Below, piece after piece: positions 10,362-15,700 of a DNA stretch of 20,352 bases; within the stretch, counting starts at the first letter, position 1; the number at the start of each line of letters is the position of its first letter. Position numbers and translations under genes: made by a program. Source of the DNA: a virus (lineage: Duplodnaviria; Heunggongvirae; Uroviricota; Caudoviricetes); the IMG/VR virus record IMGVR_UViG_2534681705_000008; one strand, written 5' to 3'. The notes under the pieces were generated by a model. The model searched no databases and was not told where the DNA came from. It saw only the letters and a list, made by a program, of their open reading frames with translations.

Positions 10362-12128
10362 ATGAACACCACACTGACACCCGCAGATCTCGATCCCCGT
10401 CGGCAGGCCATGCTGCTGTACTTTCAGGGATACCGCGTAGCCCGCATTGCTGAAATGCTGGGCGAGAAAGTTGCAACCGTTCACAGCTGGAAGAAACGCG
10501 ACAAGTGGGGTGACTATGGGCCGCTGGATCAGATGCAGCTCACCACCGCCGCACGTTACTGCCAGCTCATTATGAAGGAGCACAAAGAAGGGAAAGATTT
10601 CAAAGAAATTGACCTGCTGGCGCGCCAGTCGGAGCGCCACGCGCGGATCGGCAAGTTTAACAATGGCGGCAACGAAGCCGACTTAAACCCTAACGTCGCC
10701 AACCGCAACAAAGGCCCGCGCCGTCAGCCGGAAAAGAATGTTTTCACCGATGAACAGATAGAGAAACTGGAAGAAATCTTCCATTCCTCCATGTTCAACT
10801 ACCAGCGCCACTGGTGGGAAGCCGGAAAAACCAACCGCATCCGCAACCTGCTGAAGTCACGCCAGATCGGCGCGACCTTTTACTTTGCCCGTGAAGCCCT
10901 GATTGACGCCCTGCTTACCGGACGTAACCAGATTTTCCTTTCTGCCAGTAAGGCACAGGCTCACGTCTTTAAGCAGTACATCATCGACTTCGCCAAAGAA
11001 GTCGAGGTGGAGCTGAAAGGCGATCCGATGGTGCTTCCTAACGGGGCCACGCTTTACTTCCTCGGCACCAATGCCCGCACGGCGCAGAGTTACCACGGCA
11101 ACCTGTATCTGGATGAATATTTCTGGATACCGAAATTCCAGGAGTTGCGCAAAGTGGCTTCCGGTATGGCTATTCACAAGAAATGGCGACAAACCTATTT
11201 TTCCACGCCATCCAGCCTGACCCACAGTGCTTATCCGTTCTGGTCCGGTGCGCTGTTCAACCGTGGACGCAACAAAGCTGACAAGGTGGACATCGACCTG
11301 TCCCACAGCAATCTGGCCCCCGGCCTACTGTGCGCAGACGGGCAATACCGCCAGATAGTCACCGTGGAAGATGCGGTGCGCGGCGGCTGTAACCTGTTCG
11401 ACCTCGACCAGCTGCGCATGGAGTACAGCCCGGACGAATACCAGAACCTGCTGATGTGCGAGTTCGTGGACGATCTCGCGTCCGTGTTCCCGCTCAGCGA
11501 ACTGCAGGCGTGCATGGTGGACAGCTGGGAAGTCTGGACCGACTTTCATGCACTGGCCCTGCGCCCGTTTGGCTGGCGCGAAGTGTGGATCGGTTATGAC
11601 CCGGCAAAAGGTACGCAGAACGGCGACAGTGCCGGATGCGTGGTGGTGGCTCCGCCAGCCGTGCCGGGTGGTAAGTTCCGCATTCTTGAGCGTCACCAGT
11701 GGCGCGGGATGGACTTCCGCGCCCAGGCTGACGCCATCAAAAAACTGACCGAACAGTATAACGTGACCTATATCGGTATCGACTCGACCGGCGTCGGTCA
11801 CGGGGTTTACGAGAACGTGAAAGCGTTTTTTCCTGCCGTCAGGGAGTTTGTCTATAACCCCAACGTTAAAAACGCCCTGGTACTCAAGGCCTACGACATT
11901 ATCAGCCACCGCCGTCTGGAGTTTGACGCCGGGCACACCGACATTGCGCAGTCATTTATGGCAATCCGTCGCGCTACCACTGCCAGTGGCAACCGCCCGA
12001 CCTATGAAGCCAGCCGCAGCGAAGAAGCCAGCCATGCCGATCTGGCCTGGGCAACAATGCACGCACTGTTTAACGAACCGCTGCAGGGCGAGTCCGCCAA
12101 TACCAGCAATATTGTGGAGATTTTTTGA
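10362..12128 (+). CDS. P: Terminase ATPase (large) subunit gpP
   Basis: 588 aa; P2 gpP-like; ATG at 10362; stop overlaps the Q start (TGATG). Confidence 0.95.
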   Translation: MNTTLTPADLDPRRQAMLLYFQGYRVARIAEMLGEKVATVHSWKKRDKWGDYGPLDQMQLTTAARYCQLIMKEHKEGKDFKEIDLLARQSERHARIGKFNNGGNEADLNPNVANRNKGPRRQPEKNVFTDEQIEKLEEIFHSSMFNYQRHWWEAGKTNRIRNLLKSRQIGATFYFAREALIDALLTGRNQIFLSASKAQAHVFKQYIIDFAKEVEVELKGDPMVLPNGATLYFLGTNARTAQSYHGNLYLDEYFWIPKFQELRKVASGMAIHKKWRQTYFSTPSSLTHSAYPFWSGALFNRGRNKADKVDIDLSHSNLAPGLLCADGQYRQIVTVEDAVRGGCNLFDLDQLRMEYSPDEYQNLLMCEFVDDLASVFPLSELQACMVDSWEVWTDFHALALRPFGWREVWIGYDPAKGTQNGDSAGCVVVAPPAVPGGKFRILERHQWRGMDFRAQADAIKKLTEQYNVTYIGIDSTGVGHGVYENVKAFFPAVREFVYNPNVKNALVLKAYDIISHRRLEFDAGHTDIAQSFMAIRRATTASGNRPTYEASRSEEASHADLAWATMHALFNEPLQGESANTSNIVEIF

Positions 12129-13165
12129 TGGGAAAGAGTAAGAAGAACCGCGCTGCGTCGACGAAACAGATCCAGCATAAAAGCCAGACTTCAGCCGAAG
12201 CATTCAGCTTCGGTGATCCCGTTCCTGTTCTGGACCGCCGCGAACTGCTGGACTATGTGGAATGCGTACAGATGGATCGTTGGTACGAGCCGCCTGTGAG
12301 TTTCGACGGACTGGCGCGAACCTTCCGCGCCGCCGTGCATCACAGCTCACCGATTGCAGTGAAGTGCAACATTCTGACCAGCACCTACATCCCTCACCCG
12401 CTGCTCAGCCAGCAGGCTTTTTCGCGTTTTGTACAGGACTATCTGGTTTTTGGTAACGCCTACCTGGAGAAACGCACGAACCGCTTCGGTGAAGTTATCG
12501 CCCTTGAGCCTGCACTGGCAAAATACACCCGACGCGGGTTAGACCTTGATACCTACTGGTTTGTGCAATACGGCATGACTACACAGCCGTATCAGTTCAC
12601 GAAAGGCAACATTTTTCATCTGATGGAACCGGACATCAACCAGGAGATCTACGGCCTGCCTGGTTATCTTTCTGCCATTCCGTCAGCCCTGCTCAACGAG
12701 TCCGCCACGCTGTTCCGTCGAAAGTATTACATTAACGGCAGTCATGCAGGCTTCATCATGTACATGACCGACGCCGCGCAGAACCAGGAGGATGTAAACA
12801 ACCTCCGTAACGCGATGAAAAGCGCCAAAGGACCAGGTAACTTCCGCAATCTGTTTATGTACTCGCCTAACGGCAAAAAGGACGGACTTCAGATCATCCC
12901 ATTGTCAGAAGTCGCGGCGAAGGATGAGTTTCTGAATATCAAAAATGTCAGCCGCGATGACATGATGGCAGCGCACCGTGTGCCACCGCAAATGATGGGG
13001 ATTATGCCGAATAATGTTGGGGGGTTTGGGGATGTGGAGAAGGCAAGCCGTGTATTCGTCCGAAATGAGCTAATGCCACTACAAAAGCGATTACAGGAGA
13101 TGAATGATTGGCTTGGCAAGGAGGCGATACGGTTTGATACCTACTCGCTAGATATAGCCCCATAA
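12128..13165 (+). CDS. Q: Portal vertex protein gpQ
   Basis: The track start at 12125 is TTG; the ATG at 12128 gives 345 aa (MGKSKKNRA...); P2 gpQ-like. Confidence 0.95.
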   Translation: MGKSKKNRAASTKQIQHKSQTSAEAFSFGDPVPVLDRRELLDYVECVQMDRWYEPPVSFDGLARTFRAAVHHSSPIAVKCNILTSTYIPHPLLSQQAFSRFVQDYLVFGNAYLEKRTNRFGEVIALEPALAKYTRRGLDLDTYWFVQYGMTTQPYQFTKGNIFHLMEPDINQEIYGLPGYLSAIPSALLNESATLFRRKYYINGSHAGFIMYMTDAAQNQEDVNNLRNAMKSAKGPGNFRNLFMYSPNGKKDGLQIIPLSEVAAKDEFLNIKNVSRDDMMAAHRVPPQMMGIMPNNVGGFGDVEKASRVFVRNELMPLQKRLQEMNDWLGKEAIRFDTYSLDIAP

Positions 13166-13169
13166 TAAG

Positions 13170-13193
13170 AAAAGCCACCGTTTGGTGGCTTTT
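13170..13193. terminator. Bidirectional intrinsic terminator hairpin between convergent Q and the HipS-HIRAN gene
   Basis: Perfect 10-bp inverted repeat AAAAGCCACC-gttt-GGTGGCTTTT, with A-run and T-run flanks usable on either strand. Confidence 0.6.
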
Positions 13194-13199
13194 CTTCAT

Positions 13200-13940
13200 T
13201 TACTCAATAGGTTCAAACTCATCTTGAGGAATCAGCGTCGATTGACAGGCTTGGCTTAGTACCCCTGATAATTTACATAATAACCGATAGTTATGAGGAG
13301 CATCATCGCTAATCTTTTCGACCGTTAAAGTGATTGATTTTGGATCATCCAATAACATCTTCTTGATGTCATTACTTAAATACCTAGGGCAGTAACCAAC
13401 GATTTCAGCTGGTTTATCTGCACGAACGACAACAGCATCCCCATCGTATTCATTTTGAAGATCCAAGCAAAGACGCAAAATTTGCCCCGGTTTCAATTCA
13501 GATACACGAGCATTAGCTAAGCTATTCAAGTAACCAAGTCCATGTAAGAAGAAAAAATGCTCAAAGTTACCATCAGAATCAAAATCAATTTTTTTGAAAA
13601 TCTGCAGCTGATCAGTGCTTCGTAAGCCTCCCGAGCGAGCAAGAATATCGATAGGATTTACCTTATCTTCTTCAAATCCAAGCCATTTAATGAAACTCGG
13701 ATACTCTGGACGTCTCGGTGATAAAAGGCGATTTTTAAAAAGAGGAAACAATTCTTCCGATACATAAGTTTCACGAACATCACTCATGCCGCTAAACTTT
13801 GTAAATTTAGAAGATTTAAGAGCACCTTTGGTATACCTGAAAACATACCCCGATTTGCGCTCTTGCAAGTTACCAACAACATGCCAGTCTCTGGTATCTG
13901 GTGCCTGCCATGCGACGTAAACGGAGTTTGTATTAGTCAT
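13200..13940 (-). CDS. HipS-like (HipA N-subdomain-like) domain fused to a C-terminal HIRAN domain; putative antitoxin/sensor partner of the adjacent kinase
   Basis: 246 aa. N-terminal ~115 aa resemble the HipA N-terminal/HipS fold (VGNLQERKSGYVFRY..., ELFPLFKNRLLSP..., IDILARSGG). C-terminal ~90 aa carry HIRAN-like motifs (LHGLGYLNS; LQNEYDGDAVVV resembling NPYDxNAIxV; IVGYCPRYLSNDIKKML). ATG at 13940 overlaps the kinase stop (ATGA). Confidence 0.6.
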   Translation of the reverse strand: MTNTNSVYVAWQAPDTRDWHVVGNLQERKSGYVFRYTKGALKSSKFTKFSGMSDVRETYVSEELFPLFKNRLLSPRRPEYPSFIKWLGFEEDKVNPIDILARSGGLRSTDQLQIFKKIDFDSDGNFEHFFFLHGLGYLNSLANARVSELKPGQILRLCLDLQNEYDGDAVVVRADKPAEIVGYCPRYLSNDIKKMLLDDPKSITLTVEKISDDAPHNYRLLCKLSGVLSQACQSTLIPQDEFEPIE

Positions 13941-14851
13941 TCTAGTAACCTTCTGCGATTTTCCATTACCATTAACGTTGCAAATCTACGTGCACTGTCG
14001 GATATACACGATGAAGGCACTTGGTTAAACACATCTGTAATGGAATCTTCTGTTAAAACGCTCAACTTACCTAACCAATGGTCGCGAGCGGCAACTCTCC
14101 CTTCAACTGCATGTTGAAATGCTTCAACAGTCAGCAAGGGCTTTTTATCAGTTTTTGCTTTGAATAGCTCAGAGCGAGCTTTTCTTACAAAACATGGGAT
14201 TTGTCGATTTTTATCTTTAGTATTAAGCCGTTCGTTACGCTCATCATCTAACATCTCCCTTCCTAAACTAGCGGCATGATCGTATGTTGGACACAAAAAC
14301 TGCTCACCAGTTTCATTGTTAAGCATGATTGCCCAATTTTCATGGTGGCGATCTTGATTACTCACAAGTGCATCGAGCATCAAATATCCACAAAATACAT
14401 CTGCTGCATTTAGCCCGGTTAGATCATATACACTCGGAGGAGGCTTGATAGATTCCCTATCTAAACAACCCAAGACCCTTGTGACAGTGTGTTCTCTGAC
14501 CCTTACCGGCTTTTCCCCGGCTTGTAAAGGCCCAGGATAATCGAATGTCGAACTGTGAAGCACTTCATTTCCCATTACCATCCGGAAACCAGATGGAATG
14601 ATATTCTGAGTCACCACACCGAATCGACCATTGTATCGCGCCAAATCATAGCTAGCATGTGGAATGTTAAGCAAATGACATAACTCAGCAGCACACTTTT
14701 CAGACCAATGCTCGCCAGTACCTGGCCTAGAGTACTTAAACAACTGCAAATTTACAGTGTCATCGGAGAAATAGAACCAAAACTTCTCTTTGGTTCCTAA
14801 CTGTTCAAGATCGTTAGCTACGGGGCTAAGCTCTACCAATTGGTATGGCAT
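13937..14851 (-). CDS. HipT/HipA-like Ser/Thr kinase core (HipA_C superfamily), lacking the HipA N-terminal subdomain
   Basis: 304 aa. Gly-rich loop GTKEKF (res 19-24, resembling the HipA/HipT GxQxK loop), catalytic motif SNQDRHHENW (res 164-173, resembling GxxDxHxKN), and Mg-binding-type YD in CPTYDHAASLG (res 190-191). ATG at 14851 confirmed. Confidence 0.7.
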   Translation of the reverse strand: MPYQLVELSPVANDLEQLGTKEKFWFYFSDDTVNLQLFKYSRPGTGEHWSEKCAAELCHLLNIPHASYDLARYNGRFGVVTQNIIPSGFRMVMGNEVLHSSTFDYPGPLQAGEKPVRVREHTVTRVLGCLDRESIKPPPSVYDLTGLNAADVFCGYLMLDALVSNQDRHHENWAIMLNNETGEQFLCPTYDHAASLGREMLDDERNERLNTKDKNRQIPCFVRKARSELFKAKTDKKPLLTVEAFQHAVEGRVAARDHWLGKLSVLTEDSITDVFNQVPSSCISDSARRFATLMVMENRRRLLE

Positions 14852-14944
14852 CTGACATCCCTGTTTAGCGGATTATGAATAAGTTAGGTTCCATTTTATC
14901 CAAACATTGTCAAATACCCTAAGATTTATTAGATGATAGAGCGA

Positions 14945-14964
14945 TACTGTATGTATGTCCAGCA
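14945..14964. promoter_or_regulatory. LexA-box-like sequence (TACTGTATGTATGTCCAGCA; CTG-N10-CAG spacing retained) about 95 bp upstream of the kinase operon
   Basis: About 16/20 match to the E. coli SOS-box consensus TACTGTATATATATACAGTA, with CTG and CAG correctly spaced; right half-site is CCAG rather than ACAG. Confidence 0.3.
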
Positions 14965-15003
14965 ATCAAATCAATATATAACTCTTATATGGCTTAACGC
15001 GCG

Positions 15004-15022
15004 CTCGTATCCCCGCCACGCC
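15004..15022 (-). other. Candidate cos (cohesive-end) site: GGCGTGGCGGGGA... on the minus strand
   Basis: The 13-mer GGCGTGGCGGGGA matches the start of the P2/186 19-nt cohesive end as I recall it (P2 GGCGAGGCGGGGAAAGCAC); the location between the A/tum side and Q is where cos is expected. Confidence 0.5.
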
Positions 15023-15065
15023 TGCCCGCTTTATGTAGTGGTTTTCATGCACCTGCATGATCTAC

Positions 15066-15093
15066 GCAAAAGCCCGCCAGTTCTGGCGGGCCT
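15066..15093 (-). terminator. Intrinsic terminator of the tum/DinI-like operon
   Basis: GC-rich 9-bp stem GCCCGCCAG-tt-CTGGCGGGC, followed on the minus strand by TTTT. Confidence 0.55.
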
Positions 15094-15226
15094 TAGCAAA
15101 AACGATCCTCAAACGATCATGCGATCTCATGCGGCATAGACATGCACTACAGAGCTAACGCCTCGCAAGGGCTCGTTGTTCAACCTTGCTGACGCCAGAA
15201 GCAAGTTCAGACGCCAGCAACGTTTC

Positions 15227-15460
15227 TTAATGCAGCCAGCTGTCGTCTTCCCACACCTTCTGCATAATTTTCATCACTTGTTTTCTTTCTTCGTCCAGTT
15301 GCAGTCCGGTTAGTTCCACACCGTTAGAGCTACCTTTGCGAATGCGAATTACCGTTTTGGGATACAGGGGGCGCAGATTGCGGTAAAGCTCGGATTCAAG
15401 GGCGTCCAGGGTAGACTGGCTAATCTTCTGCTCTTTATCGATCATTATTTCAATGCGCAT
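15227..15460 (-). CDS. DinI-family protein (SOS-inducible; 186 Tum C-terminal-domain-like)
   Basis: 77 aa from the ATG at 15460 (MRIEIMIDKEQ...KVWEDDSWLH), similar to E. coli DinI; SD GAGGTG upstream; the track ORF is extended to 15532. Confidence 0.8.
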   Translation of the reverse strand: MRIEIMIDKEQKISQSTLDALESELYRNLRPLYPKTVIRIRKGSSNGVELTGLQLDEERKQVMKIMQKVWEDDSWLH

Positions 15461-15470
15461 AAAAGTCACC

Positions 15471-15659
15471 TCAGCTGATGACATCCATTGAGCGGTTGTA
15501 TTCGTGGGTTCTGATTTTTGCCATGAGTTCATCAGTCAATTCAGAAACCCACTGCAGAGCCAGCCCCTTCTCTTCATCACTACACTCACTAGCCGCTACA
15601 AGCTTAAGAAAAAAATCAATGCGCTGGAGCTTCAAAGACTCCAAAAAATAGTCCTGCAT
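15471..15659 (-). CDS. Small protein, first gene of the SOS operon (possible Tum-like antirepressor N-terminal module)
   Basis: 62 aa from the ATG at 15659 with GGAGG upstream; the longer track ORF (to 15761) would run through the LexA box and promoter and is unlikely. Confidence 0.45.
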   Translation of the reverse strand: MQDYFLESLKLQRIDFFLKLVAASECSDEEKGLALQWVSELTDELMAKIRTHEYNRSMDVIS

Positions 15660-15700
15660 CTTTCCTCCTATGACACCACACGCAACGCTGTATGCATAAC

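Follow-up and report, generated by a model that had tools for sequence, protein, structure and literature searches.

Does the host SOS response control the kinase operon that lies beside cos in this prophage? The question is raised by a palindrome at positions 14945-14964 of the stretch of viral DNA analyzed here (20,352 nucleotides, referred to as the window), which had been tentatively predicted to be a LexA operator (SOS box) upstream of the kinase gene. The window is a P2/186-like prophage, reversed with respect to the P2 map, with tail and baseplate genes on the left followed by capsid and terminase genes. Between portal gene Q and replication gene A, the minus strand carries a HIRAN gene, a kinase gene, a gap of 375 bp that extends from the kinase start to the end of a DinI-like gene (15227), and this DinI-like gene with a small phrog_698 ORF before it (Table 1). 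Both the palindrome and cos are located in the gap.

Table 1. Features of the region between portal gene Q and replication gene A (positions in the window)
Feature	Coordinates	Strand	Details
Portal gene Q	12125-13165	plus	
Hairpin AAAAGCCACC-GTTT-GGTGGCTTTT	13171..13196	no strand	read from sequence; flanked by A and T runs
hipN-type partner, 246 aa, C-terminal HIRAN (PADLOC PDC-M03B)	13200..13940	minus	PADLOC E 7e-93
hipI-type short HipA-family Ser/Thr kinase, 304 aa (PADLOC PDC-M03A)	13937..14851	minus	PADLOC E 2e-122
Predicted -10 hexamer TATCAT	14933..14938	minus	starts 6 nt past box; promoter scan
Predicted LexA operator (SOS box)	14945..14964	palindromic, no strand	plus strand TACTGTATGTATGTCCAGCA; kinase-sense strand TGCTGGACATACATACAGTA; HI 5.17
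Predicted -35 hexamer TGGACA of hipIN promoter	14956..14961	minus	within LexA box; promoter scan
cos cohesive-end sequence GGCGTGGCGGGGATACGAG	15004..15022	minus	first 13 nt are the annotated cos of phage 186
GC-rich hairpin GCCCGCCAG-AA-CTGGCGGGC, then TTTT	15072..15091 (with T run to 15068)	minus	read from sequence
DinI-like protein	15227..15532	minus	Pfam DinI E 1e-22
Second predicted LexA box CACTGTTTATATTTACAGTA	15701..15720	no strand	HI 5.89; upstream of small ORF and DinI-like operon
Replication gene A	15813-18236	minus	

The two genes downstream of the palindrome are adjacent and match both component HMMs of PDC-M03; they overlap by 4 nt (13937-13940, with the hipN start over the kinase stop). 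The kinase matches Pfam HipA_C weakly (E 3.6e-4, 20.7 bits, under the curated cut-off of 30.5). No match to it was found in the PDB by phmmer, and a profile search of the PDB gave a weak match to CtkA alone (E 0.0013). Its AlphaFold model (pLDDT 82, pTM 0.85) matches the structures of CtkA, HipA and HipT, and the motif SNQDRHHENW is invariant in 19 homologues. The protein has the properties of a hipIN kinase, i.e., a short HipA fold (~280-320 aa) that lacks N-subdomain 1 and has the catalytic motifs. In the partner protein, residues 127-228 match Pfam HIRAN (E 1e-13), and nothing significant, HipS included, was found for it when the PDB was searched by sequence and by profile. A HipB-type helix-turn-helix partner is absent from the module. 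Hundreds of kinase homologues were found, the HIRAN gene followed the kinase gene in all loci examined, across phyla, and the pair is kept from Gammaproteobacteria to Cyanobacteria. Close homologues were not found in isolated phage genomes, the only matches being four distant ones (37%) in Vibrio elements.

As judged from these features, the operon corresponds to hipIN as defined by Gerdes et al. (2021, PMC8262856) and to the PADLOC candidate defence system PDC-M03. In hipIN, the gene of a short kinase precedes that of a putative antitoxin, which combines HipS-like and HIRAN domains, and the module was proposed to sense DNA ends and to cause abortive infection (PMC8262856). The order of a short HipA-family kinase gene and a HIRAN gene, and the spread over Proteobacteria and Cyanobacteria, are the same here (PMC8262856). 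That paper contains no experimentally analysed module of the hipIN clade and mentions none of LexA, SOS and prophages (PMC8262856); the DNA-damage regulation predicted here is new information and is the difference from the published hipIN. PDC-M03 is a candidate system, which a single paper names, and only in passing, and no prior report linking hipIN/HipN, PDC-M03 or a HIRAN module to LexA was found in the searchable literature.

The letters read at the palindrome have exactly the CTG-N10-CAG spacing claimed in the original prediction. This 16-bp core lies inside a 20-bp imperfect palindrome, as in E. coli-type LexA operators. The distance to the kinase start, given earlier as about 95 bp, is 93 nt between box and ATG (14851, minus strand), and this ATG is the RefSeq start in identical E. 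coli prophages. The bare CTG-N10-CAG pattern is by itself not rare, with 12 matches in the window against 6.7 expected, and this would favor a reading in which the palindrome, in AT-rich intergenic DNA, resembles a LexA site only by chance and has no regulatory role. We therefore turn to the score of the whole box, which speaks against such a reading. The matrix of the Lewis heterology index (HI) was recovered by linear regression from 140 sequence/HI pairs of PSOSP Table S1, which gives the HI of candidate boxes in E. coli K-12 (PMC12527982). The recovered matrix is symmetric, has a held-out error below 1e-4 and reproduces the published HI values of this table exactly. The HI of the box is far under the thresholds for LexA binding, 13.2 and 14.8, that were derived in the same study, and it is similar to that of the classical SOS operators in the table, in which only eight E. 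coli K-12 rows have an HI of 5.16 or less (PMC12527982). The heterology index had been suggested as a check, with a poor value counting against the site, and the value obtained is a good one. Only 8e-5 sites with an HI of 5.17 or less are expected by chance in the 20-kb window, and at the AT-rich local composition the chance rate is 3.9e-8 per position. Besides this box, the window has only one site below HI 16, the second box of Table 1; the remaining ten CTG-N10-CAG matches have HI values of 16.6 or more.

It should be noted that the window carries a minority allele of the box. A common natural variant differs by a single central base, with C replacing T at position 10 of the box on the plus strand. 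It is the commoner form, as the allele of the window was found in 3/18 IMG/VR loci that encode an identical kinase. With an HI of 7.45, the variant has a weaker score, yet it is well within the binding range.

The location of the box with respect to transcription signals is consistent with a role as an operator. The gap had been proposed to hold the kinase promoter, and a promoter scan of 14700-15900 agrees with this: it detected a single sigma-70-like site, TGGACA-17-TATCAT (10/12 matches, minus strand), which is directed toward the kinase and overlaps the box. Read in the direction of the kinase, the box (14964-14945) spans the predicted -35 hexamer and 14 nt of the 17-nt spacer. Transcription would start near 14926, which leaves a 5' UTR of ~75 nt. 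TACTGTATGTATGTCCAGCA is very probably a real LexA binding site on the promoter of the kinase operon. The same -35/-10 architecture was the top-scoring pair or among the top three in 9/12 lineages of related modules, with a -35-like hexamer at box positions 4-9 and a TAnnnT hexamer that starts 5-6 nt past the box. The three others (L006, L090 and L094) have no clear -10 at the equivalent offset, and therefore the exact promoter geometry is uncertain.

This uncertainty bears on the possibility that LexA does bind the box, and that another promoter, located downstream of the box or reading through from the tum-like operon, drives the kinase operon, which would then be largely constitutive and only fine-tuned by LexA. 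The -10 hexamer TATCAT is indeed imperfect and lacks a clear counterpart in these three lineages, a conserved motif is present in the predicted 5' UTR, and the terminator-like hairpin upstream (15072-15091) has a short T run. However, no other promoter-like site with at least 9/12 matches was found between the box and the ATG, and read-through from the tum-like operon would depend on LexA too. Two candidates for an alternative promoter were rejected, a perfect TTGACA at 14907-14912, whose spacing to TAAAAT is just 9 nt, and CATAAT near 14869, which has no -35. We regard a second promoter as unlikely and retain the one that overlaps the box.

Several other elements were seen around this promoter. 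The motif in the predicted 5' UTR, TTAGGGTATTTGACAATGTTTGGATAAAATGG (14891-14922, minus strand), is conserved in the window, L004 and L005 and more loosely in L006; as a promoter it is implausible because of the 9-nt spacing between its TTGACA and TAAAAT. The predicted fold of the 5' UTR (14849-14926) was not more stable than those of shuffled sequences (z -0.49). In L094 and L090, in which the box is 105-110 nt from the ATG, the sequence CAAATGTTGTAA(T/G)ATGTGAC is shared ~40-60 nt upstream of the kinase ATG. These two loci may have another promoter layout, in which the -10 would possibly be part of the box (TATAAAT). At the other end of the operon, the hairpin at 13171-13196 is located between the convergent stops of portal gene Q (13165) and hipN (13200) and is likely a bidirectional terminator. 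The hairpin at 15072-15091, upstream of cos, is likely the terminator of the DinI-like operon; it was not reported by a terminator scan because its T run consists of 4 T only.

To analyze conservation of the box, upstream regions of kinase homologues were scanned with the same HI matrix. In 12 lineages, whose kinases are 61-90% identical, a box was always present, with HI values of 3.7-8.6 and located 79-110 nt upstream of the ATG. These lineages include P2-like prophages (L004, HI 7.45; L005 in Pectobacterium, 6.87; L088 in Serratia, 5.50; L093 in Duffyella, 7.95), lambdoid prophages (L010 in Buttiauxella, between antiterminator Q and holin, 8.37; L092 in Enterobacter, in the nin region, 6.72; L094 in Serratia, 4.83), the tail region of an E217-like prophage in Yersinia (L090, 3.69), an E. 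coli island (L084, 5.92), the Proteus chromosome between asd and gyrB (L087, 5.88) and a locus whose context is unknown (L006, 8.60). A similar picture was obtained with IMG/VR viral contigs: when the kinase was at least 66% identical, all loci (48/48) had a box (HI 3.8-10.8, 89-116 nt upstream), and when it was at most 60% identical, none did (0/10, HI of 17.8 or more). Altogether, 32 distinct box sequences were found. CTG and CAG are invariant in 32/32, and the variation is mostly central. In terms of information content, the box has 1.40 bits per position, versus 0.26 upstream and 0.4-0.6 downstream of it, and across lineages the flanks of the box are no longer alignable. With the box at the same distance in 12/12 lineages and 48/48 viral contigs, in spite of diverged flanks and differing contexts, and with so low an expected rate, an origin by chance is extremely unlikely. 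Conservation is, within a sequence-based analysis, the decisive evidence for reading the palindrome as a LexA operator.

The same data bear on whether LexA or some other protein would bind there. Many toxin-antitoxin operons are autoregulated via palindromic promoter operators, and since the module has no HipB-type helix-turn-helix partner, some other form of repression is plausible; the inverted repeat might thus be the operator of the HIRAN protein acting as an autoregulator, or of another host or phage repressor, with its LexA likeness incidental. However, the 32 variants keep exactly the positions needed by LexA (CTG/CAG), while their center varies in the way the HI matrix tolerates. In addition, a palindrome is entirely absent from homologous modules that fall outside the clade, which would not be expected of an operator for the module's own protein. 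We consider a different binding protein very unlikely, and LexA remains the preferred one. Occurrence of the intergenic region in E. coli chromosomes also places it in a host whose LexA recognises this motif.

In a neighbour-joining tree, the box-bearing kinases form one clade. The box-bearing loci that have an organism label are all from Enterobacterales, except for one metagenomic bin (L006) labelled Pseudoalteromonadaceae. No box was found upstream of the homologues scanned in Vibrio, Shewanella, Aeromonas, Pseudomonas, Endozoicomonas, Providencia and others. A box 469 bp upstream of the kinase gene in a Vibrio locus (L019) was rejected as a kinase box, since it is situated between divergent genes of the opposite strand, unlinked to the kinase. 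Since homologues outside the clade lack the box, the predicted SOS control would be specific to this clade and not required for the module to work. LexA control was probably gained once, at the base of the Enterobacterales clade. As the box-bearing group is a single clade, persistence of the box is evidence for selection only because flanks and contexts turned over; the simplest reading of these patterns is that purifying selection kept the box while the module moved among at least five kinds of genomic context. Moreover, the box accompanies the module into contexts that are not P2-like, and SOS control would therefore belong to the module and not to the neighborhood with tum.

These contexts also bear on a third possibility, namely that LexA binds the box and that its main target is elsewhere, either plus-strand transcription across cos (ORF 14933-15139) or the action of terminase at cos. 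The box is palindromic and only 39 nt from cos, and a 68-codon plus-strand ORF starts at 14933. However, no plus-strand promoter-like site was found in the scan, and regulation of this ORF was rejected because it has no family match and runs through cos. A cos-related role was rejected because the box also accompanies the kinase where cos is absent from the vicinity, namely in lambdoid prophages, in the island and at chromosomal sites. A target other than the kinase operon is therefore extremely unlikely. Conservation and context data disfavor all four alternatives discussed here, the second promoter least firmly. Overall, the proposed link of the kinase operon to the SOS response gains support from the HI, from the overlap with the predicted promoter and from the clade-wide conservation of the box, and we think it highly likely that 14945-14964 is a working LexA operator of the hipIN operon, which would keep it off in undamaged lysogens and release it in the SOS response.

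How is the box related to the phage that carries it? Megablast homology to other P2-family phages begins at window position 14998, and G+C is ~40% over ~13166-14997, compared with 50-57% in the flanking Q/P backbone genes. A low-GC cassette of ~1.8 kb thus lies between cos and portal gene Q. The intergenic segment was found in 21/5426 complete E. coli genomes with at least 96.9% identity, 3 of these at 100%. In the three E. coli loci that were inspected, it always occurred with the same two genes beside Q, and the other side of cos held different cargo (SIR2 and an ATPase, or a 176-aa protein). By homology border, G+C and these E. coli loci, the box belongs to the cargo and not to the phage backbone, and the same sequence comparisons indicate that the operon is a mobile cassette that entered a P2/186-like prophage between cos and Q. 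In related loci, sites with intact CTG and CAG occur only at the kinase promoter and at the promoters of tum-like or other small genes; no such site was found in the neighboring SIR2/ATPase cargo.

The region between gpA and gpQ is a known hotspot for defence genes in P2-like phages (Rousset et al. 2022, PMC9122126), and the study that described it mentions none of HipA, HIRAN, LexA and SOS. The hipIN cassette occupies this hotspot and adjoins cos, with the difference that the cargo is here on the Q side of cos (PMC9122126). Related E. coli prophages carry cargo on both sides of cos at once. In P2 there are only ~170 bp from cosL to Q, and the accessory genes of 186 (orf97) are on the other side of cos. 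Toward Q, the cos cut region of the window is followed by only ~25 bp of backbone.

The original prediction also pointed to a nearby tum operon through which the same signal would trigger prophage induction. What stands is that this operon has a LexA box of its own, at 15701-15720, which is the equivalent of p95 of phage 186; as in a Tum operon, the box lies at the promoter upstream of a Tum homologue. The assignment of its product to Tum holds in part only: the DinI-like protein aligns with the C-terminal half of 186 Tum alone (residues 71-145, 41% identity), does not correspond to full-length Tum with its N-terminal part, and is preceded by a small ORF that has no similarity to Tum. RefSeq-style annotation of its relatives uses an internal start, which gives 77 aa. 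As only the C-terminal half is matched, antirepressor function and SOS induction of the prophage are possibilities only. The immunity region of the prophage is outside the window. Thus, both the hipIN operon and the DinI/Tum-like operon are predicted to be SOS-controlled, the latter as a Tum-like operon in the restricted sense given above. At 15701-15735, the p95-like box is followed by an overlapping degenerate box-like sequence, which in one relative (L001) has an HI of 11.75 and lacks CAG. This degenerate sequence may be a weak tandem LexA site.

The closest precedent is in phage 186, whose record has p95, a LexA site, tum and orf97 ('blocks 186 infection') just before cos, at the same map position. 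With the recovered matrix, the p95 LexA site has an HI of 1.49. The hipIN operon and the p95 operon share a LexA-type promoter (a predicted one in hipIN), a location near cos in a P2-family phage, with replication gene A on one side and the portal gene on the other, and an accessory gene; in 186, the accessory gene driven by p95 is orf97, whose expression from a plasmid blocks infection by 186. However, tum and the accessory gene of 186 share a single promoter, located on the A side of cos, whereas the module described here is on the portal side of cos, has its own predicted LexA-controlled promoter and is unrelated in sequence to orf97, and the window has a separate p95-like box at 15701-15720.

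It is possible to propose how the module would work. In an undamaged lysogen, a LexA dimer on the box would exclude RNA polymerase and the operon would be silent or expressed at a low level; such exclusion is expected from the overlap of the box with the -35 hexamer and with most of the spacer. DNA damage, or any process that yields RecA-coated single-stranded DNA, would lead to LexA self-cleavage and transcription of both genes, and the same signal would de-repress the DinI/Tum-like operon ~750 bp away via its own box. The later steps would follow the hypothesis for hipIN (PMC8262856), in which the kinase is restrained by the N-terminal region of its HIRAN partner and free 3' ends of DNA are detected by the HIRAN domain. 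Once released, the kinase would phosphorylate a translation factor that is essential, with growth arrest or abortive infection as the outcome. There would thus be two signals, SOS induction that licenses synthesis and DNA ends that trigger activity. We put forward, as a tentative and rather doubtful idea, that the Enterobacterales hipIN clade is a damage-licensed two-signal system, in which LexA cleavage allows synthesis only in the presence of RecA-coated single-stranded DNA and a HIRAN test for 3' ends precedes release of the kinase, and which, being located on SOS-inducible prophages, could act at prophage induction or superinfection. If this were true, such modules might arrest cells in which a rival phage or another resident prophage replicates, or might keep damaged lysogens dormant, and screens in which these systems are cloned with native promoters in undamaged cells would systematically miss their activity.

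In several respects the site resembles classical E. coli LexA operators: it is a 20-bp palindrome with CTG-N10-CAG, its HI is in the low range and it overlaps the promoter core. The low-HI rows of PSOSP Table S1 include such operators, e.g., those of recA, sulA, recN, umuDC and uvrB. In contrast to these, the predicted site is on a mobile prophage cassette and precedes a kinase/HIRAN pair and not a repair gene. LexA also controls toxin genes of the E. coli chromosome (tisB, symE, hokE, dinQ and yafNO), whose products are small membrane peptides or RNases. The module is similar to these in that a putative growth-arresting toxin module is under predicted SOS control, and it differs in that the toxin would be a HipA-family kinase with a putative DNA-end-binding partner, located on prophages.

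The operon is, by prediction, a new member of the LexA regulon and a case in which a mobile module of the toxin/defence type was recruited to it. The widespread kinase/HIRAN module (hipIN, PDC-M03) would thereby gain a concrete input signal in Enterobacterales, as a predicted part of the SOS regulon. Such control fits a DNA-end-binding HIRAN domain and suggests that the module responds to DNA damage or to foreign DNA that replicates. A module under its native promoter should stay silent as long as cells are unstressed, and assays of defence or toxicity may need SOS induction, a lexA(Def) host or mutation of the box. Finally, cargo of the cos-proximal hotspot of P2 can, on this prediction, bring its own LexA-controlled promoter, which extends the precedent of the 186 p95 operon.

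Two further observations concern the surroundings of the module. On the minus strand upstream of gene A (18185-19620), the window has a DNA methyltransferase gene and a gene for a 276-aa protein that matches phrog_887 ('queuine tRNA-ribosyltransferase') and has no Pfam match. Together, the two may provide a DNA-modification or anti-restriction function of the prophage. In lambdoid prophages, further very strong LexA boxes were detected near the module (L092 5782-5801 and L010 1319-1338). One such box (HI 0.95) immediately follows the HIRAN gene and precedes a 107-aa ORF, and another (HI 1.49) is identical to the p95 box of phage 186. Several predicted SOS-controlled accessory genes appear to cluster near the module in these prophages.
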